Part shown: positions 42,144 through 61,076 of the stretch, piece by piece
Layout: every line of letters starts with the position of its first letter
Position numbering within the stretch: position 1 is the stretch's first letter
Virus record (IMG/VR): IMGVR_UViG_3300048089_000093
Coordinates: 21,241 to 85,240 of that record
DNA length: 64,000 bases
Source of the DNA: a virus
Lineage: Duplodnaviria > Caudoviricetes
Direction: 5' to 3' (one strand)
The notes under the pieces: generated by a model
Told to the model about the DNA's origin: nothing
The model's input: the letters and a program-made list of their open reading frames with translations, nothing else
The model's database searches: none
Program-made: the position numbers and the translations under genes

Positions 42144-42209
42144 GATGCGGTTCCTTCGGAAATTTCCGAAAAAATTTGGGCTGGTCCGGACACCTGTTCG
42201 GACCCCTAT

Positions 42210-42716
42210 TTAATCGTTGGCGAGCACCTTGGTCCTGGTGATCGCGCGGTGCTGCGCGGGCAGCTCCTTGGTCATGACGCCGCGGTCGTACTGGCCTGCG
42301 AAGATGTGCCAGATCTCGCCGCTGCAGTGCGCGAAGCTCGCGATCAGGTCGCCGCGACCGACGGCCGCTGGCATGGGTTCGCCGCAGCGCACGCGGTAGA
42401 AGGTGCGAGGGTCCATGCGCGTCGCAGAGACGTTCTCGATCACGTGCAACTCCACAGCGTCGGGGCACTCGCAGTCGCGGACGTAGAGCACGTCTGCGTC
42501 TTTTGGTAGGTCGACCAGTGCGATACCGTCGTCGCTAAACCACAGCATGTGAACGTGCAGGTGGTGGCTCATGTGCTTCCCCGTTTGTTGTTGGTCGTTA
42601 GCCGCGCGTCGGATCTCTCCCGCGCAGATCTTCGCGGCGCTGCGGAACAGGTGGTTTCGGGACTGCCCCACTACCTGTTCGCATATCTGCGCTGCAGCTT
42701 CCAGATCGTTAGTCAC
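42210..42716 (-). CDS. Hypothetical protein
   Basis: 168 aa, coupled to the upstream gene. Confidence 0.55.
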   Translation of the reverse strand: MTNDLEAAAQICEQVVGQSRNHLFRSAAKICAGEIRRAANDQQQTGKHMSHHLHVHMLWFSDDGIALVDLPKDADVLYVRDCECPDAVELHVIENVSATRMDPRTFYRVRCGEPMPAAVGRGDLIASFAHCSGEIWHIFAGQYDRGVMTKELPAQHRAITRTKVLAND

Positions 42717-43036
42717 GGTCCCTCGCTTTCTTCCAGTTTTGGTGCCGCGTTAAACAGCTGCTCGTACACCTGCACGCCGACCGTCGTCAGACACCAGTCG
42801 TTGCGCCGATGCTCGGTTGTGGCGCGCGTCAGGCCCATGCGTCGCAGCGCCTTGAACGCGCCGTAGACAAATACCATGTTGCCGCTTGCCGGCGCCCCGC
42901 GCCGCGCCTCGGGCATCAGTACTTCCTTGGCGCGCGCCGGGCCTTGCTCGCCGATCGCTTTCAGCACCTCGATGTGCCCTCGTGAGAGCGACAGGGCGAT
43001 CTGAAACGTCGCAATTTCGGGGTGCGAGGTCGTCAT
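42713..43036 (-). CDS. Putative winged helix-turn-helix DNA-binding protein
   Basis: VLKAI...GP....EV ... VY.AFK.LRRMGL ... W.LT..G..VY pattern of MarR/PadR-type wHTH. Confidence 0.5.
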   Translation of the reverse strand: MTTSHPEIATFQIALSLSRGHIEVLKAIGEQGPARAKEVLMPEARRGAPASGNMVFVYGAFKALRRMGLTRATTEHRRNDWCLTTVGVQVYEQLFNAAPKLEESEGP

Positions 43037-43045
43037 AAAAACTCC

Positions 43046-43074
43046 AGATTAATTGGGAATTACTAGTTTGTCAA
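43046..43074 (-). promoter_or_regulatory. Near-consensus sigma70 promoter
   Basis: Minus strand TTGACA(43074-43069)-17-TAATCT(43051-43046) directly upstream of the wHTH gene. Confidence 0.75.
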
Positions 43075-43080
43075 ACAGCC

Positions 43081-44067
43081 TTATTCTGCTGTGTGAATCT
43101 CAGCGGCAGTGCTTGCCGCTTCCTCGTAGACACCGATCTCGCGAGCGAAGCGTTCGATCTCGGCCCACGTGACGTTGTGGCAGCCTGCGCGGAAGTCGCC
43201 GTTCGGCTCGATCTCGTCGACCTGGAAGTGGCCGACCGGGACGCGGTGGCCGTTCTTCTGCCAGCGCGTGCCACTCATGCGAACCCACTTCACGAACTGG
43301 AACACGCGGACGGCGTGCTTCAGCGGCACTTCGGCGCCGAGCGAGGTCTGGACCGTGTCGTCGCCCTTCATGCGGAACATGACCGGCACGTTGCGGCCGA
43401 AACGGATGTTCTTGCCTGCGCGCCAGTCGTTCAGCTCGCCCTCCAGCGCCTTCAGTCGCGCAGCCTCCTGCACGGCCTTCGCCGCGTCACGCTTCTCCTT
43501 CTCGGCCTTGCGCCTGGCCTTCATTTCCGGCGTGTTGCGGTTTTCCCACGCCCGCTTGATCTCGATGAAGTCCACGTCCACCGACAGCCGCGGCGCCTTC
43601 AGATCGAACCAGTCGCAGTATTTACTGACGGTGTCCGCGGTATCAGCCATCTCGCTGATCGACGGCTCGCCGCGGTTGCGGGCCTGCCGCGCCTTGGCCT
43701 CCTCGTACCGCTCGACCAGGTACTTGAGGTTGCCCTCGTGCATCTCCTGTGCAGAGTACGCTGAGGGCGCCTTGCCGCCGTTCTCGCCGATGTAGGGCAC
43801 GCGCAGGTACATGTTCGGCATCAGCGCGTCACTGAGGCCGCTCAGCTGCTTGGTCTTCGTCGCGACCGAGTAGCCATCGCTCGTGATCAGCACGACAGAG
43901 CGGCCCCTGCTGATGCGGTGCCACTTCGCGATCGGCGTCTGATAGCTGTAGAGACGGTTGCCGACGAACCAGAACGTGCCTTCTCCGTTTTTGCCTCCGC
44001 TGCTCGCGTCCGACTCAGGATTCTGCTGTGCGAACAGGTGGCGGATCTGTGCGTTGGTGTGTGCCAT
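43081..44067 (-). CDS. Conserved phage hypothetical protein (palindrome-associated)
   Basis: F.GN.LYSY.T.IA and QTS.GA.VP...A ... GCH...W.EI motifs; palindrome+AGGAG upstream. Confidence 0.75.
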   Translation of the reverse strand: MAHTNAQIRHLFAQQNPESDASSGGKNGEGTFWFVGNRLYSYQTPIAKWHRISRGRSVVLITSDGYSVATKTKQLSGLSDALMPNMYLRVPYIGENGGKAPSAYSAQEMHEGNLKYLVERYEEAKARQARNRGEPSISEMADTADTVSKYCDWFDLKAPRLSVDVDFIEIKRAWENRNTPEMKARRKAEKEKRDAAKAVQEAARLKALEGELNDWRAGKNIRFGRNVPVMFRMKGDDTVQTSLGAEVPLKHAVRVFQFVKWVRMSGTRWQKNGHRVPVGHFQVDEIEPNGDFRAGCHNVTWAEIERFAREIGVYEEAASTAAEIHTAE

Positions 44068-44127
44068 TTTGAAACTCCTTCGGAAATTTCCGATAGTTGG
44101 TGCGGCCCCGCTCGGGGCCGCTGTTGC

Positions 44128-44559
44128 TTACGCCGCGCGCGGCGAGTCGGACCGCAGAACCTGAGCGATGTGATCCAGATCGCTCAGGCTGACCTTCACG
44201 GATGGCGCCGGCGCGGCGCCCTGATACGCGAGTGGCCGCAGACGCTCCAGACGGTCACGCAGCATCTTGACCTTGGCGCACATCTCCTCGGCCTGAGCTT
44301 CCACCTCCAGCAGCTCCAGACGCGCTCTGGCGGCCCCGCGCTTCACCCGGCTGTCCAGCAGGTCGCCGTCACTCTCGCGGCCCTCCAGACGGCGGATACG
44401 GCCCCGCAGCAGCGTCGCTTTCGCGCAGAACTCCTCAGCCATCCCTTCGGCTTCGAGCAGCTGCATGTCGGTGCGGTGTAGTTCGCGTTCCGCCTTCAGG
44501 ATCGGCGTGTCGCCGACGATTCCCCAGACGATGCCGAGATCACGAAGCGCTCGAAGCAT
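44128..44559 (-). CDS. Hypothetical coiled-coil protein
   Basis: GGAGGT SD; internal duplicated motif AEEFCAK/AEEMCAK. Confidence 0.6.
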   Translation of the reverse strand: MLRALRDLGIVWGIVGDTPILKAERELHRTDMQLLEAEGMAEEFCAKATLLRGRIRRLEGRESDGDLLDSRVKRGAARARLELLEVEAQAEEMCAKVKMLRDRLERLRPLAYQGAAPAPSVKVSLSDLDHIAQVLRSDSPRAA

Positions 44560-44752
44560 GGCTCACCTCCGACTTGCCGAAGTTGAACATCACGCGGTGA
44601 TTGACCGTGTGCTCGATGTAGCCGTAAGCGCCCTTCTTTTCCAGCTCGGCCGCTTTCTTCTTCAGGTTCTCCAGGCTCGCGCCTTCGTTGACCTGATATT
44701 TTCCGGTCTTCAGCGTCGCGCGAATCCGGTATTTCTTTTCTGCGAGTGCCAT
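44540..44752 (-). CDS. Hypothetical basic protein
   Basis: AAGGAG SD. Confidence 0.55.
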   Translation of the reverse strand: MALAEKKYRIRATLKTGKYQVNEGASLENLKKKAAELEKKGAYGYIEHTVNHRVMFNFGKSEVSHASSAS

Positions 44753-44802
44753 TCAAGTTCTCCTTCGAGGTGGGACTGCTTCGTTCAACGAACGAATTGA
44801 AA

Positions 44803-45030
44803 TTATGCCAGGGTCTTTGCTTCGTCGGGCACGGTCCAGAACCACGCCTGATCGTGTTGCTCCAGCACAACGCCGAACTGCGCGGCGAAGCTGTTGATCA
44901 GGTCGTCGGTTCCGGCCGCAGCCTCCTGTCCAGCGCGCCACGTAGGGTAGCCGCGGCGCACATAGTCCAGTTCGACGACGGCCCCGTCAAACGCTGCGTT
45001 GGCGTCTGCGTAGGGTCCATATCTCATCAT
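44803..45030 (-). CDS. Hypothetical protein
   Basis: GAGGT SD after the ardA stop. Confidence 0.5.
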   Translation of the reverse strand: MMRYGPYADANAAFDGAVVELDYVRRGYPTWRAGQEAAAGTDDLINSFAAQFGVVLEQHDQAWFWTVPDEAKTLA

Positions 45031-45034
45031 TACC

Positions 45035-45676
45035 TCACAAGTCGCGGAAAAAGTGACCACCGGACTCGGAGTGACCATGTCGCAGCTCTCCGTCCCAGTA
45101 GCGCTCCCAGTCGATGTAACTGAAGAACGGGTTGTCTGATTCGATCGAACCAGTCTCCAACGCCCACTCTTCGGCGAACTTTGCTGGGCTGTCGTAGTAG
45201 CCGATATATGCCTCGCGAAACTTCTCGACCGTCACGTCCTTGATGTCGCCGCTCTGCATGTCGTTGACGTAGATCATGAACGCTTCGATCTCATCGTCGT
45301 CGTTCAGGTCTCCGAGCTTTTCTTCGAGATCAGCGATCTCGGACATCGAGGTGTACTCGCCGATCAGTCCGCTAGGGAAACCTTCATGGTCGTGGATCGC
45401 GTACTCTTCGGAGGCCGGAAGCTTGCCTTCACCTTTGCAGCGAGAGCACGCTACAGCGGCGCTCTCGTCACTCAGCTCGACGCTGCTCTCGCCTTCGCAG
45501 TCCGGGCAATCGATCATGACGTTCGGAAACTTGCTAGTGAGAAACACCTTGTCGCGGATCTCATTCGACAGATCGTCCGCGTCCATGCCTTCAGTCTCGA
45601 TCCACGTGCCATGCAGAACGCCGTTGTTATACGACGCGAGGCATGCCACGTAGACGCGGCGTGTTGTTGTGCTCAT
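45035..45676 (-). CDS. ardA: Antirestriction protein ArdA (DNA mimic) with Cys4 insertion
   Basis: VYVACL.SYN.G.L.G.W, EYAIHD.EG, GEY, Y.G.Y.S...FAEE, YID.E.Y; very acidic. Confidence 0.88.
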   Translation of the reverse strand: MSTTTRRVYVACLASYNNGVLHGTWIETEGMDADDLSNEIRDKVFLTSKFPNVMIDCPDCEGESSVELSDESAAVACSRCKGEGKLPASEEYAIHDHEGFPSGLIGEYTSMSEIADLEEKLGDLNDDDEIEAFMIYVNDMQSGDIKDVTVEKFREAYIGYYDSPAKFAEEWALETGSIESDNPFFSYIDWERYWDGELRHGHSESGGHFFRDL

Positions 45677-45715
45677 GATGCTCTCCGTTCGGAAGTTTCC
45701 GAAAAGTGCTGCTGG

Positions 45716-46066
45716 TTAATGCGTCGGGATGTCGAGGATCTTTACCTCGTACGAGTCAACGTTGAAACCAAGTCGGTCGATAAACGCTCGAACCTGAGAC
45801 TCGTTATCGAACGGCCCGTAGAACTGGTAACCGTCAGATATGGTGCCGCGGACCACGAGCAGTGGGCATTCGCCGCTTCCGCGCTGCCAGGCAGGCGTGT
45901 TGGGGTCAGCCGGCTCGTCGCTGCACGCTTCCTTAATGCGAGAAAGCAGTTGATCAACGGCAGGCACGCCCGCGCCGAGCCTAGGCTCTAACCGCTCGAC
46001 CATAGTCTCCAGCGCTTCCTGCAGAATGCTGCACTCAGTCCCGCTCAGATCGAGGAATGCCATCAC
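45716..46066 (-). CDS. Hypothetical protein
   Basis: Coupled to the upstream stop. Confidence 0.55.
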   Translation of the reverse strand: MMAFLDLSGTECSILQEALETMVERLEPRLGAGVPAVDQLLSRIKEACSDEPADPNTPAWQRGSGECPLLVVRGTISDGYQFYGPFDNESQVRAFIDRLGFNVDSYEVKILDIPTH

Positions 46067-46629
46067 ATGTACTCCCGCAGGTTCGGCTGCTCGATCTCAT
46101 CCAGCAGCGCGATTCGATAGATGTCAGCCAGGTACTCCTTCGTCATGTTCCGGTCGCGGCCGGTTACGCGGCTGATCTCGATCTTGCCGATGAACGAGGG
46201 CTTCACGAAGATCGTGTAGTCTTCCCAGCCGACGTACATGCCGTGCTCGTTCATGTGGTGGTAGGCGCAATCGAACACGAGCATGTCGCGGCGCAGCGAC
46301 GTGACGCGGTCGAGCTTCGTGCCGTTGTCGACGCCGCTGCCGCTGGGCAGGTGGTTCTTCACCATGTCGTCGATGTACATATCCCACGCCTGCTCCATGC
46401 TGCGGCGGTCGTTCCCGCCGCGCTTGCAGTTGTCCCACGCCGACAGCGCGCTGAACAGCATCTCGTAGACGGGGCGCTTCTGCGTGGGGGCCGGGTTCAA
46501 CTCGCGACAGACGACCTTCGCCTGCTCCGCGTTCAACCCCACAACGAATGTGCGCTGTGGGGTGGCCTGCGTGTCCTTGACCTCCCACCCGTGGGGGATG
46601 TTCTCGTACGCTTCGTAGCGCTTGCTCAT
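46063..46629 (-). CDS. Conserved phage hypothetical protein (palindrome-associated)
   Basis: LPSGSG.D.GTK.D...HHMNE.G.Y.GW motif; palindrome+AGGAG upstream. Confidence 0.75.
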   Translation of the reverse strand: MSKRYEAYENIPHGWEVKDTQATPQRTFVVGLNAEQAKVVCRELNPAPTQKRPVYEMLFSALSAWDNCKRGGNDRRSMEQAWDMYIDDMVKNHLPSGSGVDNGTKLDRVTSLRRDMLVFDCAYHHMNEHGMYVGWEDYTIFVKPSFIGKIEISRVTGRDRNMTKEYLADIYRIALLDEIEQPNLREYM

Positions 46630-46664
46630 GATGCTCTCCTTCGGAAATTTCCGATCAGGTTGGG

Positions 46665-47018
46665 TTAGGCACGCACCCAATACGTCGCGCCGTCGTAGTC
46701 GACCCGCTTGTAGTCCTGCTTCAGCGCGTCAGCCGCCTTGGTCCAGTCGATGCAGTCATACGGCCAGCCGCTGGTCGGACCCATGTCGCCCGCATAATCC
46801 TCTGCCCACTCCAGAAAGTGGTCGTCACGAATCAGGTGCCAGTCCGCGCGGCGGCCCGTTGCACTGTCGGCTTCTTCGAGCACGCCGCGCAGATTCGTCA
46901 GCTCGTCCATGTCGTCGAAGTCTGCGGGGTTCTCTTTCAGCTCGCCAGCGTAGTAGGCGATTGCCATGAGTACTTCGGCGCGCGTGATCGTGTTGTTCTG
47001 GTTCGTTACGTCAGCCAT
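46665..47018 (-). CDS. Acidic ArdA-like (C-terminal domain) protein
   Basis: LIRD..F.E.AED.......WP..CIDW..AA..L..DY..VD.DG.TYW, resembling the ArdA C-terminal domain. Confidence 0.55.
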   Translation of the reverse strand: MADVTNQNNTITRAEVLMAIAYYAGELKENPADFDDMDELTNLRGVLEEADSATGRRADWHLIRDDHFLEWAEDYAGDMGPTSGWPYDCIDWTKAADALKQDYKRVDYDGATYWVRA

Positions 47019-47049
47019 GTTGCTCTCCTTCGGAAATTTCCGATTGTGA

Positions 47050-47445
47050 TTACTGCTCGCCCTTGTTGTTCTGAGTCGTCCGCTTCATCGCAGGCTTCTC
47101 ATCCGTTTTGATCAGGTAGTCGTCGCGATTACCGACGATCCAGCCCGGTTGATGCCCCCGGCCACTCCACGTCTTGCCTGTGTTCGGGTCCACATACTTC
47201 GGTGGGCTCACGCTCTTGGGCTTCTTCACCGCGAACGTCTTGTCGCTCTGCTTGATCTTCTTCGCGGGCACCTGCTGTGCTTTCACGAAGCCGAGGTCGA
47301 CGGTGGTCAACTCGAACTCCTCGATCAGCGCTTTGCATGTAGCGATTGCGTCTTTCGCAGCGTGGCGCTTTGCGATCTCGATTTCCGCGTCGATCTTTTT
47401 ACGCCGCGCGAGTAGTTCGCGGTAGTGGTCTTTCTGCTTGGTCAC
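47050..47445 (-). CDS. hns: H-NS family nucleoid-associated protein
   Basis: Y.ELL.....I..EIE.A oligomerisation helix; PPKY.DP.TGKTWSGRG..P.W DNA-binding motif. Confidence 0.92.
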   Translation of the reverse strand: MTKQKDHYRELLARRKKIDAEIEIAKRHAAKDAIATCKALIEEFELTTVDLGFVKAQQVPAKKIKQSDKTFAVKKPKSVSPPKYVDPNTGKTWSGRGHQPGWIVGNRDDYLIKTDEKPAMKRTTQNNKGEQ

Positions 47446-48086
47446 ACCAATCCTCCATTAAGGCGTTTGCGCAGCCACTTCTTCAGGTCGGTGCCGCTGC
47501 GCAGGGTGATTTCAATTTCAGGTATCTCGAAGTGCGCCGCGCCACCCCAAAATTCGTCGGGCTTCGTGCCGACCATTAGCGCCTTGCTCTGCGTCTGGTC
47601 GTAGTAGCCGTAAGCAACGAACGCATGGACGATGCGATGCCGCAACTCTCTACGGCTGAATTTCTCGTCTTGCCAGCCGCACGCTGCGAACGCGTTGCGC
47701 ACTCGCGTGTCGCCGAGCTTCTCGTCGACGTTGACGGTCAGTTCCTCGATCCAGAACAGGTTGTCGGGGCCGCCCGCGTCGCTGCAGGGCGTGACGCGCC
47801 ACGCGTCCACGTAGTTCGGCCAGTTGTCGAGGTTGTAGAAGTAGCCGCCGTTCTCGATGCTCATGTCGCCGCTATAGAACCAGCGCGGCTTTTTGCGGCC
47901 CTTGCTGATATAGGACATGTAGCGGCGAACCTCGGGGTCGAGTCTCATCTTCTCGACGCGCTCGCGGTGACGCTTGAACACGCCCTCGTTGTGCGCTGCC
48001 GACGAAGTTACCGTCTTGCGCGCGTCGTATTCGCCTGTGTCGACGTACAGACCTTTCTCGATGCTGTACTTCAGCTTGTTAGGCAT
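47442..48086 (-). CDS. Hypothetical protein (palindrome-associated)
   Basis: Palindrome+AGGAG upstream; 214 aa. Confidence 0.72.
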   Translation of the reverse strand: MPNKLKYSIEKGLYVDTGEYDARKTVTSSAAHNEGVFKRHRERVEKMRLDPEVRRYMSYISKGRKKPRWFYSGDMSIENGGYFYNLDNWPNYVDAWRVTPCSDAGGPDNLFWIEELTVNVDEKLGDTRVRNAFAACGWQDEKFSRRELRHRIVHAFVAYGYYDQTQSKALMVGTKPDEFWGGAAHFEIPEIEITLRSGTDLKKWLRKRLNGGLV

Positions 48087-48122
48087 TTGAGTCTCCTTCG
48101 GAAATTTCCGATTGTTCGCGGC

Positions 48123-48377
48123 TCAGACTTCGAGTTGCGGGTTGTCACGCACGTACGCAGCGATGTCGCCTTTGTTGCCGCCGGTGTCGTCCATTGCGAG
48201 GTACATCATCACGCGCTGCGCCTTGTCGAGCAGCTGCTCGGCGAACGCCTTGCCTTCACCTTCATCGAACACCTGGAAGCCGTGGTTGCCTTCCTTGTCG
48301 ATCCACTCGACCACGTCGTAGTTGAAGCGCTCGCTGCTGGTGAGGTCGACCTGCAGACCCATCTCAATCGTTGCCAT
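48123..48377 (-). CDS. Hypothetical protein (palindrome-associated)
   Basis: Palindrome+AGGAG upstream; true start lies inside the track ORF. Confidence 0.7.
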   Translation of the reverse strand: MATIEMGLQVDLTSSERFNYDVVEWIDKEGNHGFQVFDEGEGKAFAEQLLDKAQRVMMYLAMDDTGGNKGDIAAYVRDNPQLEV

Positions 48378-48493
48378 CATTTTCTCCTTCGGAAATTTCC
48401 GATAATTCTCACACCATGCGCAGGCACATGGCCGCTCCAGCGGTCTGCACTTTGCGCAATGGCACTCTCCTACGTGTGTACCGTCATGGCCGC

Positions 48494-48763
48494 TCATTGC
48501 ATCAACTTCCAAACGCTGCCGATTAGCGAGATCGCATCCGCCTGGCTGTGTCCGTTGCGCAGCAGCGCATCGGCGTGCGGCCGCACTGCATCGCGCATCT
48601 GCTTCTGCATCTCGGGCGTCATAGGCTGGCCCTTGAAGGGTTGAAGGACGCGTGCTGTTTCCATCATCAGGTACGCGTCAGTGTTCTGGATTGGTTGTGG
48701 CACGTCAGTCTCTCCCGTCAAGCCATTCGATTTCACACACGGCCACGGCGTCGAGAGAGACAA
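48494..48763 (-). CDS. Hypothetical protein
   Basis: Track ORF; start uncertain. Confidence 0.4.
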   Translation of the reverse strand: MSLSTPWPCVKSNGLTGETDVPQPIQNTDAYLMMETARVLQPFKGQPMTPEMQKQMRDAVRPHADALLRNGHSQADAISLIGSVWKLMQ

Positions 48764-49004
48764 AGATCACGCGCTCGATATCTTCCGGCTCCCACAGCCG
48801 CATCATGAAGCCGCCCACGATACGGACGGACGTCGATACGTCCTGCCCTGTTGCAGTCGGTGCGCGCGGCGGCGCTACCGTGCCGCGGTACTTCCGCCCG
48901 TTGATCTCGAACTTCAGCAGGAACGCACGGTCGACGTTCTGCCTCACCTCGGTCTCGTATAGCGCTGCCATGACTGCGCTCATGACTTTCTCCACTTTGC
49001 GCAC
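48705..49004 (-). CDS. Hypothetical protein
   Basis: Typical codon use; start uncertain. Confidence 0.5.
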   Translation of the reverse strand: MRKVEKVMSAVMAALYETEVRQNVDRAFLLKFEINGRKYRGTVAPPRAPTATGQDVSTSVRIVGGFMMRLWEPEDIERVIFVSLDAVAVCEIEWLDGRD

Positions 49005-49648: not shown

Positions 49649-49674
49649 GTTGCTCTCCTTCGGAAATTTCCGAT

Positions 49675-49908: not shown

Positions 49909-49934
49909 GTTGCTCTCCTTCGGAAATTTCCGAT

Positions 49935-50264: not shown

Positions 50265-50265
50265 G

Positions 50266-50748: not shown

Positions 50749-50752
50749 CACG

Positions 50753-51154: not shown

Positions 51155-51190
51155 GATGTTGCTCCTTCGGAAATTTCCGATTGTGTTGCG

Positions 51191-51478: not shown

Positions 51479-51505
51479 GGTGTTTCTCCTTCGGAAATTT
51501 CCGAT

Positions 51506-52572: not shown

Positions 52573-52610
52573 GATGCTGCTCCTTCGGAAATTTCCGATT
52601 TGTGCCGCGG

Positions 52611-52901: not shown

Positions 52902-52927
52902 ACTGCGCTCCTTCGGAAATTTCCGAT

Positions 52928-53686
52928 TTAATGCTGTTCGTCAATCGTGCCGTTGATGCGCAACGTCGCGGCGATCTCCAGCTCATCGCCCGGTTCCTCG
53001 CGGCACACGTCCTCCGCTTCCTGAGCGTCTTTCGCCCACAGCGCGCGACTCCAGCGCGACGTGTCGTCACCGTACAGGCCGAACACGTGATAGAACTGCA
53101 CGCGCACGAGCTGCCCTTCTTCGAACGTCACCGCTGAGTCGAGATTGACGCGTTCGATCACGCCGTCCTCGATAACGCAGGCGCGGCACTCATACTTCCA
53201 GCCGTCGCCCCGCACCTCATTAACGACCTCGAACAGATGCTCCGACCACACACTGGTCGAGCGCACGTGGTCACCTTCGCGGAACTGCGCGCAGCGTTCC
53301 AGCGAGCTAGTGTCGACCGGGTACGTGCTGTCGTTAGTGCCGCCGGTATGCTTCACGCGGCGCATATCCGGATGCCCTGTGACGTAGCTGACGACTTCAA
53401 CTTCTCTGTGGCTCAGGTAGCCGCCGAACTTATGCACGGCTATCGTGCCCACCGGGAACTGATCCACCGCCTTGACGCCTGCGAGGATATCCGTGATGAG
53501 CACGCGCTCCACTTCTTCGTTGCTGCCGACCAGCACGCGCTCGGCGTGCACATCAATTTTCTTCATGTCGAGTGTCATTTGCTGGACTGAGCCGCAATCC
53601 ATCTTCATGTACACGAGCGCGGATCGCTGTCCGTCGCTGAGGACGAGGCGGCACATGTCACTGATGGCGAGTTCGTTGAAACGCAT
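52928..53686 (-). CDS. Hypothetical protein (palindrome-associated)
   Basis: Palindrome+AGGGAG upstream; stop 1 nt from the next palindrome. Confidence 0.7.
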   Translation of the reverse strand: MRFNELAISDMCRLVLSDGQRSALVYMKMDCGSVQQMTLDMKKIDVHAERVLVGSNEEVERVLITDILAGVKAVDQFPVGTIAVHKFGGYLSHREVEVVSYVTGHPDMRRVKHTGGTNDSTYPVDTSSLERCAQFREGDHVRSTSVWSEHLFEVVNEVRGDGWKYECRACVIEDGVIERVNLDSAVTFEEGQLVRVQFYHVFGLYGDDTSRWSRALWAKDAQEAEDVCREEPGDELEIAATLRINGTIDEQH

Positions 53687-53726
53687 GGTGATACTCCCTT
53701 CGGAAATTTCCGATATGTGCTTCGAT

Positions 53727-54350
53727 TTACCAGTACTGGATGACCGCGCCACCCAGGTCGTTACTGCGAATCTCGTTCAGCGCGAACTGCTCGACCTCGA
53801 CGATCGTTCTGTCAGGCCACGTCGTCTCGCGGCTGTAGTCCAGACCCTCCTTCGTCTTGAAGATGATCTGCCAGCGCGCGTTCGGCCAGTTCGGATCGGT
53901 GAGCCGCGATTCGTCGTAATCACGCACGACGTTGTTCTCCAGCACGTCACAGAAGTGCATCGCCGCGCGCGGCTCGATGTGGTCGTGCAGATCCCAGCCG
54001 TTCGGGTACGTCGCGAGCAGGTCCGGATGCGGCGGCAGCGACACGCCGAATACTTCGATGCGGCCGTCGGGCAACACACCCGTACGAACGTCGGGCTTGA
54101 AGCTGCGCACGCCCTCGGGGCCGTTGCGCCTGGCGATCTTCTCGATGAACTGCTGCATCTGCGCGGTTTTTGCCTGCGCGTAGCGATCAGCGAGCTTTTG
54201 CAGCCGCTCGTCGCTGCCGCTCCACCGGCAGCGCTTGAGTGCTGCCACCAGCTCCGCCAGCGACTCGTCGTCCATACTGCCGTAGTTGGCGGCGATCGCT
54301 TTCTGTGCAGCGGCGATGAGTTGGTCGCGGGGGTCGATGTACTTGTCCAT
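53727..54350 (-). CDS. Hypothetical protein (palindrome-associated)
   Basis: Palindrome+AGGAG upstream. Confidence 0.72.
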   Translation of the reverse strand: MDKYIDPRDQLIAAAQKAIAANYGSMDDESLAELVAALKRCRWSGSDERLQKLADRYAQAKTAQMQQFIEKIARRNGPEGVRSFKPDVRTGVLPDGRIEVFGVSLPPHPDLLATYPNGWDLHDHIEPRAAMHFCDVLENNVVRDYDESRLTDPNWPNARWQIIFKTKEGLDYSRETTWPDRTIVEVEQFALNEIRSNDLGGAVIQYW

Positions 54351-54387
54351 GTCTCTCTCCTTCGGAAATTTCCGAAAAGTGTTGCTG

Positions 54388-54660
54388 TTATTTCAGGTAG
54401 TGCTGGATCAGGCCGAGCGCGAGCACGACGCTGAAGCCGACGACGTACAGCTTGTTGCTCAGCCGCGTTTCCATGTTGTCGACGTGCACACGGAGCACGG
54501 CAATCTCGCCCTTGACCTCCGCGATATCCGCCTTGGTCGCGATCGCTTCCATCAACCCTCTGTTAAGCGCGGTCACCAGAATCTCAGCGCCGCGCTCGCT
54601 CATGCCGCCTTCCGCAGCGAGCTGTTTGATGACTTCGTGTGTGTCGTTGAATACGGGCAT
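54388..54660 (-). CDS. DUF1640/CCDC90-like coiled-coil membrane protein
   Basis: F.DTH.....L...G.....AE, ATKAD, C-terminal TM helix. Confidence 0.7.
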   Translation of the reverse strand: MPVFNDTHEVIKQLAAEGGMSERGAEILVTALNRGLMEAIATKADIAEVKGEIAVLRVHVDNMETRLSNKLYVVGFSVVLALGLIQHYLK

Positions 54661-54661
54661 C

Positions 54662-54829
54662 TCAGGCTCCCAGTCTGCTGTCGAGATATTCGAGCAGGTA
54701 CTTCGCATAGGACACGAGCAGGTCGTGCCCCTCGAACTGAAACACTTCCTTGCCGGCCGCGAGCGCTGCGTTGTATGCCTTGCGCAGCTGGTCGCGCTTG
54801 GCGCGGTCCCATGTTATTTCGCCTGCCAC
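54662..54829 (-). CDS. Small hypothetical protein not in the ORF track (55 aa)
   Basis: GGAG SD + GTG; MAGEITWDRAKRDQLRKAYNAALAAGKEVFQFEGHDLLVSYAKYLLEYLDSRLGA fills the gap exactly. Confidence 0.6.
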   Translation of the reverse strand: MAGEITWDRAKRDQLRKAYNAALAAGKEVFQFEGHDLLVSYAKYLLEYLDSRLGA

Positions 54830-54830
54830 G

Positions 54831-55136
54831 TTACTCTCCTGATTCGTCTTTCGGCCACTCGAACACGGTGCACATGTCGTCGACGAACAGCATGGCGCGA
54901 GCGTGCGAGTCGTTGAGTACTTTCGTTTCGTTGACGTGCTGCGCAGCGAGATCGAACAGGTTGCGCATGTCCGCGCTTGCGTCGTTATCCGGCGTGTACA
55001 GGACCGTGTTCGTGCTGAATCCCGTCAGGTCGATCACCGACTCGAACACGTTCGACAGCGCCTCCAGATTGGACGATACAACCTGCTCGGGCAGGCCGTC
55101 GGGGAAGTCCATTTCGATGAACATCATTCGTTTCAT
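54831..55136 (-). CDS. Hypothetical protein (palindrome-associated)
   Basis: Palindrome+AGGAG upstream. Confidence 0.7.
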   Translation of the reverse strand: MKRMMFIEMDFPDGLPEQVVSSNLEALSNVFESVIDLTGFSTNTVLYTPDNDASADMRNLFDLAAQHVNETKVLNDSHARAMLFVDDMCTVFEWPKDESGE

Positions 55137-55505
55137 TTAAAGCTCCTTCGGAAATTTCCGATTAAACGACTTCTGGTACGAACGGACCCGCCCACGCAGG
55201 TAGAAAAACGCCTCGCTGCGCCACGGCTCATCCCCGTTCGAGTTCTCGGTGAACCACCACAGCGCGTCCACCAGCTCCATGCCGTCGAGGAGTTTCTTGA
55301 CGTCCTCGAAGTCGAGCGCCGCGAACTCTTTCGCGTAACGTTCAACAGCTATCACGAGCGCGCGCTTGAAGTCGCCCTCATCAAACAGAGAACTCTGGAC
55401 CATCTCACAGCGCAGCCCCTGAACTGTGCGCTTCTCAGGGTTCGTCGACAGTGCGTTCAGGGAGTGCTGCGCGTAGGCCGGCAGCTGCTCGAATTTGATT
55501 TTCAC
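55137..55505 (-). CDS. Hypothetical protein (palindrome-associated)
   Basis: Palindrome+AGGAG upstream; GTG start; C-terminus reads through the next palindrome (NRKFPKEL). Confidence 0.65.
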   Translation of the reverse strand: MKIKFEQLPAYAQHSLNALSTNPEKRTVQGLRCEMVQSSLFDEGDFKRALVIAVERYAKEFAALDFEDVKKLLDGMELVDALWWFTENSNGDEPWRSEAFFYLRGRVRSYQKSFNRKFPKEL

Positions 55506-55542
55506 TTCTACTCTCCTTCGGAAATTTCCGAAACGCGCTGCG

Positions 55543-55935
55543 TTAATCAACCTTGTCGATGCCCTGCTGCACGGCATAACCGATCAGGTGCTCCCACTTG
55601 AACGAGTAGCGCTTGCCGCTCGTCTTGCTCTCGATCACCGGGTTGCCCGAGAGGTTCGTGGCGAGGCCGTACTGATGCGCATCGCTGCCCGCCTCGCCCA
55701 CGTGCACGGTCATGATCATCGACTTCTTCGGGATCATGGTGCCCATCTGCGCAGGCTCGCGCTCGAAGTGCGCTTCGATATCGGCGATGCGGTTGCGCAT
55801 TGTCTCGCGGTCCTCGTCGGTGTACTCGTGATACTCACCGCCCTCCATGTTGTCGAGGTCCGCGCGCAACGTGGCGAGCAGCTCGTCACGGATATAGCTT
55901 TCGACTGCTGCGTCGTCTTCAAAGTGTTTGTACAT
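55543..55935 (-). CDS. Hypothetical protein (palindrome-associated)
   Basis: Palindrome+AGGAG upstream. Confidence 0.7.
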   Translation of the reverse strand: MYKHFEDDAAVESYIRDELLATLRADLDNMEGGEYHEYTDEDRETMRNRIADIEAHFEREPAQMGTMIPKKSMIMTVHVGEAGSDAHQYGLATNLSGNPVIESKTSGKRYSFKWEHLIGYAVQQGIDKVD

Positions 55936-55998
55936 GTCCTGCTCCTTCGGAAATTTCCGATTAAACACGCAGGGCGGCTCGCACCGCCCCTCCTCTTT

Positions 55999-56199
55999 TC
56001 AGTGCAACACGCGATGGTCGTCGTGGATCTTCAGGATACGTCCCACGTCCGACCAGTCCGAATCGTCACTGATGTGATAGTGAACCAATCCACCGTGCAG
56101 ATGACACCGGTGAATCACCCCCTCCTGCAGCAGCGCCTCTGCCTGGTCATCTTCGAGCAGGCAGGGCACGCTGTCGTCTTCTAGCAACATTGCCGACAT
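55999..56199 (-). CDS. Hypothetical protein
   Basis: 66 aa, acidic and His-rich. Confidence 0.45.
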   Translation of the reverse strand: MSAMLLEDDSVPCLLEDDQAEALLQEGVIHRCHLHGGLVHYHISDDSDWSDVGRILKIHDDHRVLH

Positions 56200-56211
56200 T
56201 GCATTGCTGCC

Positions 56212-56490
56212 TTACTGCGCAGCGACGGTCGTCTTGCTGATGTGCACCCACGCCGGCCATTCAGCCTTCGCACTCGGCACGGATTTCTGCGTCGGTTGCA
56301 GCGCGACGACGGCTTCGCGCTGCACCGGGTTCATGGTCTGCCAGTTATCGACATAGCCAAGCACAGCGACGCCCGCGCCGGCATTGCCCGAATTGCGGGC
56401 GCCCGAGCCCGCGGTGCCGTTGCCGCTCGAACCCTGAGCGTGGGCGGCGGTGGAGAAGGCGATGACGAAAAGAATGATGACGGTCTTCAT
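56212..56490 (-). CDS. Secreted/periplasmic small protein
   Basis: AGGAG SD; Sec signal MKTVIILFVIAFSTAAHA followed by a Gly/Ser/Asn-rich linker. Confidence 0.6.
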   Translation of the reverse strand: MKTVIILFVIAFSTAAHAQGSSGNGTAGSGARNSGNAGAGVAVLGYVDNWQTMNPVQREAVVALQPTQKSVPSAKAEWPAWVHISKTTVAAQ

Positions 56491-56525
56491 TGTTATGCTC
56501 CTTGGGTACTGCGTTGGTGGGACTG

Positions 56526-56663
56526 CTAAGGGACTGCGAAAAGTACTGCAAGAACGACCAGTGCTATGGTCGAAAGCAGGGCCGCTATCGTGCGGCCCGG
56601 CCACCGGAATAATGACACGAGCACCAGCCCGAGAACTATTGGGTTAGTCACGAAGCGGATCAT
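56526..56663 (-). CDS. Small 2-TM membrane peptide
   Basis: GGAG SD; MIRFVTNPIVLGLVLVSLFRWPGRTIAALLSTIALVVLAVLFAVP. Confidence 0.45.
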   Translation of the reverse strand: MIRFVTNPIVLGLVLVSLFRWPGRTIAALLSTIALVVLAVLFAVP

Positions 56664-56786
56664 TGTGTCGGATCTCCGCGACAGTGACGAGGTAGTCCCC
56701 GAGCACGGCGATTGCGGCCAGCGCAAGGATGATGGTTGCTGTGGTGAGCATTCGGAAATTTCCGAAAGTGGTGAAGCGTTGGTGGG

Positions 56787-57188
56787 TTACTGCCCGATCT
56801 TCTCGACCAGCGCATCGGCCGCGCGCTGATACTGCGCCTGCTCCCAGTACTGGGTGCCGATCAGGTGTGCGAGCTGGTGCACGATCAGCTGCACAGCCGG
56901 ATCGTTACTGATCTCGTCCGTGCCCATGTTCTCAGCGCGGCACATGGCAACTGCGTCGGCCAGCGAGTTCACGATCGCGATCGGATTGCAGGCGCCCATC
57001 TGGATTGCCTGAGCAGCGCGGAAGCGGTTGCGTTCGATCGTTGCATGCACCGCTGCGTTGACGAACATCGTCGTGCACTTCTCATTAGCGCCGGCCGCGT
57101 CATCAGCCATGCAATCCCAGCTCTGCGTGGCGCCGAGGCTATCGTCAGCGGCGCGCAGTTTGAAGTGGACTCGGAAGTGTTTGTTCAT
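56787..57188 (-). CDS. Hypothetical protein (palindrome-associated)
   Basis: Palindrome+ACGGAG upstream. Confidence 0.68.
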   Translation of the reverse strand: MNKHFRVHFKLRAADDSLGATQSWDCMADDAAGANEKCTTMFVNAAVHATIERNRFRAAQAIQMGACNPIAIVNSLADAVAMCRAENMGTDEISNDPAVQLIVHQLAHLIGTQYWEQAQYQRAADALVEKIGQ

Positions 57189-57235
57189 GGTCAGGCTCCG
57201 TTCGGAAATTTCCGAAAAGTACTGCGGCTGGTGTG

Positions 57236-57267
57236 AAAAGCGCCGATCGTTTCGTGTCGATCGGCGC
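57236..57267 (-). terminator. Rho-independent terminator
   Basis: Minus strand GCGCCGATCG-acacgaaa-CGATCGGCGC-TTTT. Confidence 0.7.
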
Positions 57268-57310
57268 ACAGTTTATCAGATTGAAGCGGTAGAACAACGG
57301 CGGGTGAAAA

Positions 57311-58378
57311 CTACTCAGGCTTGATGTTTTTCAACATCTCCGAGTAGCTTCCCATCTCTTTCTGGGCAGTCTGCTCGGCTTCGGCCCGATTGCGTTCCTG
57401 CGCCTTCAGGCTTTCGTACGGTCTGGGGTTCCAGTCGCTCGTCTGCAACGGCGCTCTCGTCGCGCGCGGCGATTCGATTTCATCGCGCCTGATGGGCGCG
57501 CGTCGGCCGGGCGGCTGCATGTCGCGGAACTCTTTCTGGCGATTACCGTAACGAGTGGCCTCGTCGCGCCACTGGTCAGTCAGGCTTCGCCCCTTGTCCG
57601 TGTGCTTGATGATCGCGACCTGTGCCGAATGCGCGCCCCAAACCGCGCAGATGTGCTCGAACAGGCGCAGGCTGACGACTACCACGTCCTCCCGGTTGAC
57701 GGCGCGCTCACGTCGAATATGATCCCGGCTCTCGCGGAAAAATCGCTGGATCTGTCCGAGGTGTGACGACGGCGTCAGGTTGTACCCCTCGCTCATAAAG
57801 CTAAAGGCGCTCGCCCATGACACGTAGACAGATAGCCTGTCGGGCTGCTGCTCGTCTTCGGCCACGTAGAGCAGATACACGGTCTTGTCGTCCAGGATCA
57901 CAGCCCGATGAAACCGCTCCTCCTGACGCTGCTCCTGTGTCATGTGCACACGACTGGCCTTCACGCGATGGCTCGGGTCATCGACGGCCGGCTGAATGCT
58001 GCGCGGAACCTCGACACGATGCGGCTTCAGCCATGACGGTGCAGGCGAAATCGGAAATTTCCGAAAAATCGCCCACTCGTCGAGAGCGCGTGCCGTGGGC
58101 ATGTGCTCAAGACGGACTGGCGCGGAGAGCCAGTGTTTAACGACCGAGTGAGTGGTGAAGCGCAACGGCAGGCGCGCACGACCACCTCCAGCGACGAGCT
58201 TCGTATGCTCAGGCGCCAGATTCTGAAGCTGCGTGCTGTTCGCGCCGGTGAGCCCGATCAGCTTCACGAGGTCTGAGGCACACCACATCAAACCCAGCTC
58301 GTCGTCTACAACATAGCGCAAATGGCCGTGCGTCCTTGCAGTAGGGGCGGGTGGGCCATCGTACTTGAAAATTGTCAT
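57311..58378 (-). CDS. Bro-N-like DNA-binding protein
   Basis: LRYVV.......W.ASDL...IG.....  N-terminal pattern resembling Bro-N; start could extend to TTG 58405. Confidence 0.5.
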   Translation of the reverse strand: MTIFKYDGPPAPTARTHGHLRYVVDDELGLMWCASDLVKLIGLTGANSTQLQNLAPEHTKLVAGGGRARLPLRFTTHSVVKHWLSAPVRLEHMPTARALDEWAIFRKFPISPAPSWLKPHRVEVPRSIQPAVDDPSHRVKASRVHMTQEQRQEERFHRAVILDDKTVYLLYVAEDEQQPDRLSVYVSWASAFSFMSEGYNLTPSSHLGQIQRFFRESRDHIRRERAVNREDVVVVSLRLFEHICAVWGAHSAQVAIIKHTDKGRSLTDQWRDEATRYGNRQKEFRDMQPPGRRAPIRRDEIESPRATRAPLQTSDWNPRPYESLKAQERNRAEAEQTAQKEMGSYSEMLKNIKPE

Positions 58379-58510
58379 ATTAAAATCCAGAAGTTGCAGG
58401 GCCAAAATTCAAACTCCAAACCCTGGACAGCGCTAGGGAATTTGGACGAAGCCGGAAAATACAGGCAGCGTTCCTGGGAAGTTTGAATTTCCAGAGCGAA
58501 AGACAGTGCG

Positions 58511-58555
58511 TTCAATTATAAATTTAATCTTTTTTAAAAGATATTAAATATTGAA
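58511..58555. other. Extremely AT-rich imperfect palindrome (candidate DNA-unwinding element)
   Basis: TTCAATTATAAATTTAATCTTTTTTAAAAGATATTAAATATTGAA, 4 G/C in 45 nt. Confidence 0.7.
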
Positions 58556-58667
58556 CGTCAGTTTTCGGGTGCTGCGGAGTCGTGTTTCGCTGCGGATTCG
58601 GCTCGCTGCAAGTTTTCGGAAATTTCCGACGCTGTGAAATCGCTGAAAGCCATGCTGGGCGGCGGGT

Positions 58668-59063
58668 GCACAAGTCGCGGCAGGCTCCGCACAAGTCGCT
58701 GCGGCGTTGCTGAAAATGAGACAATTCTCGCTGTAAAAGGTATTGCTAGTGGCGGATGTGGTGTATTAGGTCGAAAATTTGCAACAATCGAACGTGTGTG
58801 CAAATGCGCTTTCGAACTATATATGTCACATTACTAGCAGGTCGCCTTGACTTGTGCGAAAAGCGGCCTGACTTGTGCGCAATTGCTAGTGCAAAAGCAC
58901 TGATTTTCCGCACAAGTCGACCCAAAATCCGCACAAGTCGCGGTTACAAACACCTTTCAAGGGTTGAATCTTCCACGTTTTCGGAAATTTCCGAACGAAT
59001 ATGCTCAGAAACTGCCGAAAACATCGGAAACGACTTGTGCACTTTCAATGCACAAGTCGTTTC
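58668..59063. repeat. Iteron-like GCACAAGTC(G) array, 8 copies
   Basis: Forward at 58668, 58689, 58910, 58931, 59050; reverse at 58849, 58870, 59031. Three pairs are spaced exactly 21 bp; the last two form a 15-bp inverted repeat (59027-59063). Confidence 0.9.
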
Positions 59064-59231
59064 TTCTCCTGACAAACGTCGGAAAAGAGAATTCTCCTCA
59101 CGCTGCGGAACACCAGATCACGCCCCACGCGAGACCCAGAATGAGGCCGGCCGTGCACGCTGCGACCACGCACAAATCGCCCCGTACGTACACCACAGCG
59201 AGCTTCGGAAATTTCCGAAACAGAACGCGCT

Positions 59232-59309
59232 TCACTGCGCATCTCCAGCCATTGCACGCGCCGCTACTTCGTCGCTGTTTTCCAGCGCATGAACCAGATC
59301 GTCAACCAT
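59232..59309 (-). CDS. 25-aa small ORF (palindrome-associated)
   Basis: Variant palindrome + AAGGAG + ATG; MVDDLVHALENSDEVAARAMAGDAQ. Confidence 0.45.
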   Translation of the reverse strand: MVDDLVHALENSDEVAARAMAGDAQ

Positions 59310-59361
59310 AAGGACTCCTTCGGAAATTTGCGAAAATGATGCACTCAGAAAGCGGGCGTGA

Positions 59362-59823
59362 TTAGTCCCCGCCAGGCAGATGACAGCACATGTACAGCGC
59401 TGCGGCGCGCTGCAATAACAGCGCGCGCCGATTGGTTTCAATCGAACGCTTGCCGCGCCGTGTAGTGACGCGCTGGCGGGTCGTTTCGTCGTCCGCACAC
59501 TGCGCCGCTTGTTCGAGTAATTCGGAAATTTCCGAATCGAATTCGTATCGGCCGCGCTCGCCAATCAACTCGTCAGTCAGCGCGTCGCGCATCTCTACAT
59601 ACGCTGCGCCTTTCGGAAATTTCCGAAAGATCGATAACGCCCGTTGACGATCGGCGCCGCGATAAATAGCGGACCATGCACCGTTACCCGTACGCCAGAA
59701 AGTGGCGTAACGCGCACGGTGCATATCGAACGGGCGTGGCGCGCCATACACTTTCGGGTATGCGCCGCCCACTTGCGAGCCAATGCGCGATAAGGCGCTT
59801 AGCTCTTTGTGCATGTCATCCAT
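59362..59823 (-). CDS. Possible hypothetical protein carrying two internal palindromes
   Basis: 153-aa ORF with atypical codon use; may not be real. Confidence 0.3.
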   Translation of the reverse strand: MDDMHKELSALSRIGSQVGGAYPKVYGAPRPFDMHRARYATFWRTGNGAWSAIYRGADRQRALSIFRKFPKGAAYVEMRDALTDELIGERGRYEFDSEISELLEQAAQCADDETTRQRVTTRRGKRSIETNRRALLLQRAAALYMCCHLPGGD

Positions 59824-60888: not shown

Positions 60889-61076
60889 TGCCAGAACTAA
60901 GGCGAGTGAATACTTAGCGCTTTGCGAGGGGGAGCGGGCAGACCATCGGAAAATTACGATGCAGGGGCGCTTACCTACCCTGGCGTTTTCTCCAGACCGC
61001 GCGCGAGGGGGCGTAACCACCCCCCACGAAAATTTTTGCTCTAGAAATTTCCCCTACCCTTACAAACCCCTTACGC

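Follow-up and report, generated by a model that had tools for sequence, protein, structure and literature searches.

A perfect 14-bp palindrome beside early-gene ribosome-binding sites marks one arm, and the cassette junctions, of a phage-plasmid

Many of the small early genes in the 85,240-bp virus record IMGVR_UViG_3300048089_000093 (Caudoviricetes) are preceded by a perfect 14-bp palindrome, TCGGAAATTTCCGA, which occurs in 25 exact copies and two copies with one mismatch (45689 and 59320). All 27 lie between positions 42156 and 59626 of the 64,000-nucleotide stretch analysed here (hereafter the window; bases 21241-85240 of the record), to which coordinates refer unless another sequence is named. 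This recount agrees with an original prediction, made by reading the sequence without database searches, which had reported the same copies and none in the preceding 42 kb. When up to two mismatches were allowed, the scan of the window added a single match, at 60946, while dinucleotide-preserving shuffles gave a mean of 0.22 matches at that stringency and none of 100 shuffles reached the observed 28. A scan of the whole 85,240-bp record returned the same 27 copies and none besides, leaving the remaining 21 kb empty, and a reversed-pattern control on the whole record gave no match. The feature is real, strongly selected and cleanly delimited; as it is confined to one 17.5-kb arm, describing it as a phage-wide regulon was an overstatement.

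Plus-strand morphogenesis genes occupy the first 35 kb of the genome, and a long minus-strand unit runs from about 60.7 kb of the window down to 14.5 kb. This unit opens with some 40 small genes, which constitute the motif zone; their products include an ArdA-like anti-restriction protein and a protein with an H-NS C-terminal domain, nearly all others being ORFans. A replication module follows, encoding an SNF2 helicase, a primase, PolA, a ligase, an SF1 helicase and an SbcC-like ATPase. In 20 of the 27 copies the minus strand reads motif, A and a GGAG or GGAG-like Shine-Dalgarno (SD) sequence, with an ATG or GTG 8-13 nt past the motif, confirming the arrangement and the number of cases described earlier. 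Another copy, 56752, stands directly against an ATG and lacks an SD; the other six are not linked to a start (Table 1). On our heuristic gene calls, and with at least 25 nt of free upstream space as the threshold, the motif is present at 19 of 25 zone genes and at none of 14 such genes in the replication module; one more zone gene, beyond those 19, has an embedded copy. Where zone genes lack the motif, most overlap or adjoin the gene before them, with translational coupling; one (a 107-aa gene) has a promoter of its own, TTGACA-17-TAATCT, and the few that follow long gaps are probably mis-annotated. Of the original interpretation, the analysis supports a strongly selected cis-element that is specific to the promoter-proximal block of small early genes.

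The conserved SD-linked unit can be written W-W-TCGGAAATTTCCGA-A-GGAG. Among 50 contexts, the succession motif-A-GGAG occurs in 46 and the start codon lies 11-12 nt past the motif in 42. The distance from motif to SD is fixed (1-2 nt to GGAG), whereas that from the preceding stop codon varies, and the finding of motif and SD inside the 3' end of the preceding open reading frame (ORF) in three cases indicates that the feature being kept is the position relative to the downstream start. In the mRNA, the core is predicted to fold into a 5-bp hairpin that abuts the SD, with a free energy (dG) of -4.9 kcal/mol and a mean pair probability of 0.85. Such a short stem of low stability, followed on the mRNA strand by AGGAG and lacking a U-tract, does not have the features of an intrinsic terminator, and Rfam covariance models gave no matches in the window. 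The bases flanking the stem are not free to vary. T at -1 is found in 18 of 52 SD-linked copies compared to 18 of 20 non-SD-linked ones (Fisher 4e-5, the rows not being fully independent), and C at -2 never occurs among SD-linked copies. As T at -1 would lengthen the mRNA stem into the SD, lowering the predicted probability that the SD is unpaired to a mean of 0.35 from the 0.59 calculated with A at -1, the SD-linked copies avoid such flanks; selection thus sees the stem in the mRNA, if only because it endangers translation.

Copies without an SD follow another rule. Besides T at -1, the non-SD-linked copies have A at +1 in 17 of 20, which makes the site, where unconstrained, the 16-bp palindrome TTCGGAAATTTCCGAA. 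The frequent extension to 16 bp claimed in the original prediction therefore holds for these copies and not for the SD-linked ones. The six copies of the window that are not linked to a start are distributed as two in a 150-aa gene, one in the first long gene (355 aa) and three in the upstream stretch of small ORFs and non-coding DNA, where two of the three bracket an iteron-like array beside an AT-rich stretch. All six are kept as exact 14-mers both in the related contig L168 and in the divergent contig L169. In ungapped comparison of the window with L169 their flanks are 50% identical overall, and only about 28% identical for the two intergenic copies, whose motif matches at 14 of 14 positions. 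The in-gene copies show selection at the nucleotide level: the spelling CGG-AAA-TTT-CCG has a joint codon usage of 1.8e-3 per allele and is found in three alleles, and the spelling GAT-TCG-GAA-ATT-TCC-GAA has one of 8e-5. In the long ORF, moreover, T at -1 is kept through the rare codons TTT, ATT and CTT (usage 0.13, 0.11 and 0.05) in the three alleles, even though the base at +1 is T. There, T at -1 has no partner in the copy's own hairpin, which fits recognition of a half-site. The original prediction had missed this positional and rare-codon conservation, as well as the cassette junctions and the phage-plasmid lifestyle considered below.

Relatives were collected as metagenome contigs from protein look-ups and represent at least four lineages (L122-125, L130 and L161-169). 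Their shared proteins are 46-92% identical, and all carry the identical 14-mer, at orthologous as well as at new positions. L161 has 14 copies in 11 kb of early genes and none in the next 9.4 kb of replication genes, its last copy preceding the same gene as the last copy of the window. Across 72 distinct 30-nt contexts from window and relatives, all 14 positions, the loop included, are 98-100% conserved, with five single-base variants; in no case are both members of a pair changed, and each variant within the stem disrupts its pairing. The near-invariant centre and the lack of compensatory changes remarked on earlier hold, then, in this larger set. A GC-rich hairpin upstream of copy 44080 differs in sequence in L122 and L161 and keeps its pairing. 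Since TCGGAAATTTCCGA stays invariant while this neighbouring hairpin and the iterons change, it is likely to be read by something sequence-specific and constrained, and not as mere structure, in line with the earlier preference for sequence-specific recognition over a simple RNA stem.

Comparison of relatives directly shows the motif to be a cassette junction, at which gains, losses and replacements break. In the close variants L161 and L166, blocks that are 92-99% identical stop 18-21 nt past the start of a motif, that is, at the end of motif plus SD, and twice the end extends into the first codons (+32); the blocks resume at 0, -2 or -8 from the motif. Whole genes stand between two copies in one of these genomes where the other has a single copy, and 7 of 14 internal block boundaries fall within a 41-nt interval around the motif, with about 7% expected. 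L168 is otherwise 98-99% identical to the window and differs from it in a diverged segment that reaches from copy 58616 to 18 nt upstream of copy 56752, neither copy being linked to an SD. In comparisons of the window with L161 and with L166, too, homology blocks begin at the motif. No Phage_integrase or Resolvase domain, and hence no tyrosine or serine recombinase, was found in the genome, which suggests that exchange proceeds by short homology or is stimulated by the binder of the site, and is not integron-like.

Genes for a Rep_3 initiator (E 1e-34) and a ParA-like ATPase occupy the left end of the genome; together with a 102-aa partner gene they stand beside siphovirus morphogenesis genes, at bases 1104-3337 of G000 (L154) and 1010-3279 of L168. 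As the two ends of the record are contiguous in L168, this equipment makes the element a circular phage-plasmid, and no integrase is encoded in the genome. The nearest plasmid Rep_3 homologues are from Burkholderiaceae (38-43% identical), a weak hint that the host may belong to this family. Within the motif zone, a region between 58668 and 59059 holds eight CGACTTGTGC boxes, arranged in pairs 21 bp apart, and the hairpin at 59027-59063 has a perfect 17-bp stem built of two inverted CGACTTGTGC boxes. L169 shows the same architecture at 3650-4170 with a different iteron-like box, GACTCGCTCC. The array, with its hairpin and AT-rich stretch, looks like a replication origin or centromere whose specificity would co-evolve, unlike the invariant palindrome.

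The reading that we favour, at a probability of roughly 0.45, is that the palindrome is a double-stranded DNA operator through which a conserved dimeric regulator silences the early cassettes. This regulator, of phage or host origin, would recognise TTCGGAAATTTCCGAA, with its invariant 14-bp core, as double-stranded DNA at about 27 sites along the leftward early operon, one of them directly ahead of almost every independently translated cassette. Six sites lie in the operon head (the 150-aa gene, the small ORFs and the control region), two of these bracketing the iteron array, and one in the first long gene. Once occupied, the sites would shut down or roadblock early genes for anti-defence and host takeover singly, for instance during plasmid-prophage maintenance, in a manner like that of the stoperators of mycobacteriophages and with a symmetric site. 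The sequence as such has two side effects: a 5-bp mRNA hairpin abutting the SD, which restricts the flanks of SD-linked copies, and a repeated motif plus SD that acts as a homology patch where relatives gain, lose and replace cassettes. Several observations speak for an operator. Dyad symmetry is perfect through the centre, the 4-nt loop AATT being itself palindromic (1 in 16 by chance); as an RNA hairpin needs no palindromic loop, this counts for recognition at the DNA level. Two copies bracket the iteron and AT-rich region upstream of a predicted early promoter, where DNA sites are typically found. The invariance of the 14-mer among diverged lineages, the positional and rare-codon conservation of the copies without an SD, their 16-bp form with the partnerless T at -1 in the long ORF, and the restriction to one gene class are further points in favour. 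Early genes must be tightly silenced in a plasmid-prophage, so that the phage-plasmid character of the genome also counts for an operator, and dispersed operators that block elongation are established for Cluster A mycobacteriophages (PMC9283540, PMC6550527).

Other observations weigh against an operator, and the evidence on mechanism is split between recognition at the DNA and at the RNA level. The fixed spacing of 1-2 nt to GGAG and mostly 11-12 nt to the start, seen in about 50 contexts, is not needed by a DNA roadblock and fits a role in translation better; it could, on the other hand, be simply inherited, since cassettes are exchanged exactly at motif plus SD. The hairpin is predicted in the mRNA with high pair probability, and every copy lies within one transcription direction, so that a role at the RNA level is possible for any of them. 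Operators of phage repressors usually diverge between relatives; TCGGAAATTTCCGA does not, so that a host factor or a protein under unusual constraint is indicated; a host factor as the putative binder is in keeping with a site that stays invariant from lineage to lineage. No binder of the palindrome was identified in the genome, which gave no Pfam match to HTH_3, ParB_N, Bro-N or a recombinase. The Bro-N (57311-58378) and Ant-like (37053-37868) proteins named as binders in the original prediction found no Pfam or PHROG support and were discarded, and HTH_3 and ParB_N candidates were likewise rejected for want of family support in the genome. Another protein it had named, a winged helix-turn-helix candidate at 42713-43036, fared better in part. 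This 107-aa protein is conserved (64-88% identical) and does have a predicted winged-helix fold (pLDDT, the predicted local distance difference test, 76), its best PDB neighbours being RosR, MarR, PadR and TubR at template modelling (TM) scores of 0.5-0.6 with weak E-values. As a binder it is compromised by a 65% identical homologue on TrfA plasmids, which has nearly the same putative recognition helix and wing and no motif within 19 kb. The gene and its leader (TTAATCTGGAG before the ATG) are found at this identity on TrfA/relaxase plasmids at L164 8763-9086 and L165 10001-10324, directly upstream of a tyrosine recombinase, and it has the look of a mobile regulator module. Coupled to it in the window is a gene at 42210-42716 for a DUF7352 protein (E 2e-6), with a terminator-like hairpin after the pair, so the two may form a self-contained promoter-to-terminator unit inside the early operon.

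A tag read in RNA is an alternative that is possible and, in our judgement, doubtful. On the polycistronic early mRNA, the hairpin with its AAUU loop beside the SD would be recognised by a sequence-specific RNA-binding protein or endoribonuclease and give cistron-by-cistron control, either as a target of translational repression in the manner of T4 RegA or coat-protein operators, through a RegB-like cut next to GGAG, or as a protective or insulating 5' hairpin after processing. The constant juxtaposition of motif, SD and start, kept even where motif and SD lie inside the preceding ORF, would be expected of it, as would a hairpin that folds in context and flanks that spare the SD (T at -1 disfavoured, C at -2 never found), a sign that selection sees the stem; the motif is also limited to one temporal class, with all copies in one transcription unit. 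An RNA tag leaves the palindromic loop without a reason, however, and neither covariation nor tolerance of G-U pairs is seen, all variants breaking a pair or striking the loop (a comparison of low power). It also accounts poorly for the conserved SD-less copies inside ORFs and in the iteron-rich spacer, which comes after a strong hairpin and is probably poorly transcribed, and for the T at -1 that is kept where its pairing partner is lacking; no Rfam match was found in the window. A variant in which two copies pair with each other into a 14-18-bp duplex, for RNase III-type processing or RNA-RNA regulation, would make use of exactly the full self-complementarity observed. The duplex is predicted at -20.6 kcal/mol compared to 2 x -4.9 for two hairpins, and T at -1 could pair with the nearly universal A at +1 of another copy, which would explain the unpaired T at -1 in the long ORF. 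Co-transcriptional folding favours local hairpins, however, and we know of no precedent for self-complementary RNA tags in phage mRNAs, so that we give this variant very little credence.

The junctions themselves could be the whole explanation, the motif (with or without SD) having no regulatory role and persisting as a shared exchange point homogenised among co-infecting relatives. The boundaries between L161 and L166, half of which lie at the motif, the replaced segment of L168 bounded by copies 58616 and 56752, and the homology blocks that begin at the motif between the window and L161 or L166 all agree with this. Exchange requires no palindrome, however, and 14-19 bp offers little length to general homologous recombination; the genome has no gene for a tyrosine or serine recombinase, and homogenisation explains neither the identical rare-codon copies in ORF alleles that are 46-49% identical nor invariance amid neighbours diverged by about 50%. 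We regard a purely recombinational role as improbable. Somewhat less improbable, though still unlikely, is the combined proposal that one 16-bp palindrome serves as the operator of a silencing protein and also as the point at which gene cassettes are exchanged without an integrase. If it were true, a standardised plug (operator, hairpin and ribosome-binding site) would let phage-plasmids swap anti-defence and host-takeover genes, each incoming gene coming automatically under the same lysogenic silencing and early expression control, and such a dual role would explain how accessory-gene arrays of temperate elements stay plastic yet tightly controlled. The least probable of all is that the motif acts as a promoter or transcription start for an RNA polymerase which the phage modifies or encodes, with one start per cassette. 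Several copies do follow terminator-like hairpins (42183-42204, 44102-44121 and 55972-55989), and another zone gene has its promoter merely 9 nt from the ATG. No RNA polymerase gene was found, however, the largest non-structural ORFs being PolA and the primase; neither the motif nor its surroundings show a -10/-35 pattern, and there is no enrichment of promoter-like sites. A start 7 nt past the AAATTT centre would land inside the SD, and a symmetric site would fire both ways. An 890-aa ORF once considered as a phage RNA polymerase proved to be the primase, and that hypothesis was rejected.

Dispersed short repeats at phage gene junctions are a recurrent theme, and the present motif was compared with the known systems. 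Cluster O mycobacteriophages carry 17-bp dyad repeats, TGTTCGGNNNCCGAACA, made of 7-bp inverted repeats 3 bp apart and of unknown function (PMC4351075). The likeness is considerable: more than 30 near-invariant short palindromes per genome, denser in the leftward non-structural arm, many intergenic and some within genes, with arms that share TTCGG/CCGAA around an A/T centre. The half-sites there are separated by 3 central bases as opposed to 6 here, however, the length differs, host and phage lineage are unrelated, and the Cluster O repeats are genome-wide and stated not to be closely linked to translation starts, whereas here 20 of 27 are fused to an SD and all lie in one arm. The start-associated sequence (SAS) of Cluster K is an AGGAG-containing element a few bases before the ATG of non-structural genes only, and its extended form (ESAS) adds an upstream inverted repeat that its authors considered a possible DNA-binding site (PMC3203893). 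An AGGAG element near starts, restricted here to the early arm, is common to both, and SAS is kept across subclusters before unrelated genes. SAS is asymmetric, however, and the ESAS, an imperfect inverted repeat of 17 bp, varies in its spacer and differs in consensus between subclusters, while the present motif is perfect, spacer-less and invariant, has an unrelated sequence, and includes conserved copies without any start codon.

The Cluster A stoperators (L5 gp71, TipsytheTRex) resemble the motif in being near-identical, in numbering dozens and in occupying the short intergenic spaces of a temperate phage, and their gene-by-gene silencing by blocking elongation is proven (PMC9283540, PMC6550527). 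They are asymmetric 13-mers oriented with transcription, bound by a monomer and spread genome-wide, unlike the perfect 14-16-bp palindrome described here, of which 21 of 27 copies directly precede a start codon; they co-vary with the repressor between immunity groups, whereas the motif is invariant in all relatives found and no repressor was identified. In T4-type phages, promoter early stem-loop (PeSL) motifs flank cassettes of small early ORFans, and insertions, deletions and replacements break at the motif (PMC2839356, PMC4122927). A PeSL is about 50 bp long and joins an early sigma70 promoter to a terminator-like stem-loop; here there is no promoter, the element measures 14-19 bp, and the palindrome is fused to the SD. 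Our element lacks at least one defining feature of the Cluster O, K and A repeats and of PeSLs alike, and we file it as of the same general kind and as a member of none.

The comparison was extended to other systems. Integrons have an IntI tyrosine recombinase beside the array, for which the genome has no Phage_integrase or Resolvase domain, and attC sites are imperfect palindromes of 57-141 bp, conserved in structure and placed at the 3' end of the cassette, whereas the present element is an invariant 14-16 bp at the 5' end. Promoters of the N4 hairpin type or the T7 type need a cognate phage RNA polymerase, to which there is no match in the genome. KorA and KorB of RK2 and C1 of P1 are single regulators acting at 7-17 dispersed operators in many operons of an extrachromosomal element, with some sites far from promoters or within genes; no KorB/ParB-type protein is present here, P1 operators are asymmetric, and none of these operators is known to be fused to ribosome-binding sites. 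Among the dispersed short repeats at phage gene junctions a mechanism has been demonstrated only for the stoperators. The present case is unusually clean in that the palindrome is perfect and invariant down to about 50% protein identity, the cassette breakpoints are mapped to the base, and the motif occurs in two contexts, SD-fused and free, whose flank differences can be interpreted.

Table 1. Copies of the palindrome and accompanying features of the early arm (window coordinates; strand left empty where none is assigned)
Feature	Position	Strand	Remarks
Motif, SD-linked (AGGAA)	42156..42169	-	start 42143 of gene 41664-42143; last copy of zone; preceded by terminator-like hairpin 42183-42204 and T-run; orthologous copies in L122, L124, L161
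107-aa winged-helix-like gene	42713..43080	-	own promoter (see text); within zone, no motif; weak regulator candidate
Motif, SD-linked	44080..44093	-	start 44067, 328-aa phrog_7247 protein; exact in L122-125, L130, L161
GC-rich hairpin	44102..44121		precedes copy 44080
Motif, one mismatch, SD-linked	45689..45702	-	central T->C on mRNA strand; start 45676, ArdA-like anti-restriction protein
Motif, SD-linked	46641..46654	-	start 46629
Motif, SD-linked	47030..47043	-	start 47018
Motif, SD-linked	48098..48111	-	start 48086; H-NS-like gene 47050-47445 coupled downstream
Motif, SD-linked	48389..48402	-	start 48380 or 48377
Motif, SD-linked	49660..49673	-	start 49648
Motif, SD-linked	49920..49933	-	start 49908
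Motif, SD-linked	51167..51180	-	start 51154
Motif, SD-linked	51491..51504	-	start 51478
Motif, SD-linked	52585..52598	-	start 52572
Motif, SD-linked	52913..52926	-	GTG start 52901
Motif, SD-linked (AGGGAG)	53700..53713	-	start 53686
Motif, SD-linked	54362..54375	-	start 54350
Motif, SD-linked	55148..55161	-	start 55136; motif and SD within 3' end of preceding ORF 55137-55505, as at L161 4093 and 4373
Motif, SD-linked	55518..55531	-	GTG start 55505
Motif, SD-linked	55947..55960	-	start 55935; preceded by GC-rich hairpin 55972-55989
Motif without SD	56752..56765	-	abuts ATG 56751 of 35-aa hydrophobic ORF; right breakpoint of segment replaced in L168
Motif, SD-linked (ACGGAG)	57202..57215	-	start 57188
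Motif within 355/364-aa ORF 57311-58405	58051..58064		read (F/I/L)RKFPI; exact in three alleles, 46-49% identical; rare codons
Control/origin-like region	58400..59070		eight CGACTTGTGC iteron-like boxes 58668-59059, conserved core, AT-rich stretch with TATAAT near 58510, upstream of zone's first long gene
Motif, non-coding, promoter side of iteron-like array	58616..58629		exact in L168, L169; flanks ~28% identical; left breakpoint of segment replaced in L168
Motif, non-coding, other side of array	58981..58994		just after 17-bp-stem hairpin 59027-59063; exact in L168, L169
Motif after small ORF	59205..59218		possible 32-aa hydrophobic ORF without SD follows; exact in L168, L169
Motif, one mismatch (G4->C), SD-linked	59320..59333	-	start 59309, 29-aa ORF; near-identical L168 has exact motif
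Motif within conserved 150-aa gene 59362-59814	59522..59535		read DSEISE, rare codons
Motif within the same 150-aa gene	59613..59626		read FRKFPK; part of 20-bp perfect palindrome CTTTCGGAAATTTCCGAAAG in window

The structure model of the 150-aa protein (pLDDT 48) was too poor to use. Two hydrophobic small ORFs, at 56644-56751 (35 aa) and 59110-59205 (about 32 aa), each come after a motif copy and lack an SD; L168 conserves both of them, and L169 the second. The two-mismatch copy at 60946-60959, TCGTAATTTTCCGA, is situated where the leftward and rightward units diverge, and the matching place in L168 has another two-mismatch version, GCGGAATTTTCCGA, adjoining a short variable segment. A suspected second motif, CAGTCCCAC, is not over-represented, with 14 matches compared to 14 expected.

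Searches beyond the collected contigs returned no close relative from INPHARED, PLSDB, IMG/VR or GTDB genomes, and none in single-protein scans of IMG/VR. PolA is only 25-28% identical to PolA of 80-88-kb Vibrio and Pseudomonas phages, and a profile scan returned only distant SNF2 relatives (21-30%), each with other repeats. The 19-mer of motif plus SD is absent from other IMG/VR contigs and gave only single, chance-level matches in metagenome contigs and GTDB species genomes; a 30-mer gave only chance matches in INPHARED phages and PLSDB plasmids, and the 14-mer was not found in the published literature. In IMG/VR the 14-mer alone has mostly single chance matches. A few contigs there carry tandem arrays of about 9 bp (AARTTKCSG), in which the palindrome arises by overlap; a lysis gene is all that they have in common with this phage, and they were judged unrelated. 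Such non-coding arrays, for example ATTTCCGAAATTTCGGAAATTTCCGAAGTTGCGGAAG, are found in L023, L027, L034, L070 and L052, and could serve to bind a protein whose half-site is similar.

More distant contigs have repeats of their own. L126 is a distant podophage-like contig of 41 kb with the phrog_7247 protein in common; it lacks the palindrome, and at 8470-16200 a conserved leader, CAACGGAGAAA(A/C)GA, stands ahead of many early genes instead. The distant SNF2-bearing viral contigs L176, L170/L175/L178/L179 and L184 have their own over-represented 12-mers: AATTACAAGAAT occurs 13 times in L176, GCAGGGGCCGGAGC 4-5 times in L175, L178 and L179, and the related GGCTCCGGCCCC 5 times in L170. Lineage-specific dispersed repeats thus seem to be common in this broad SNF2-bearing group.

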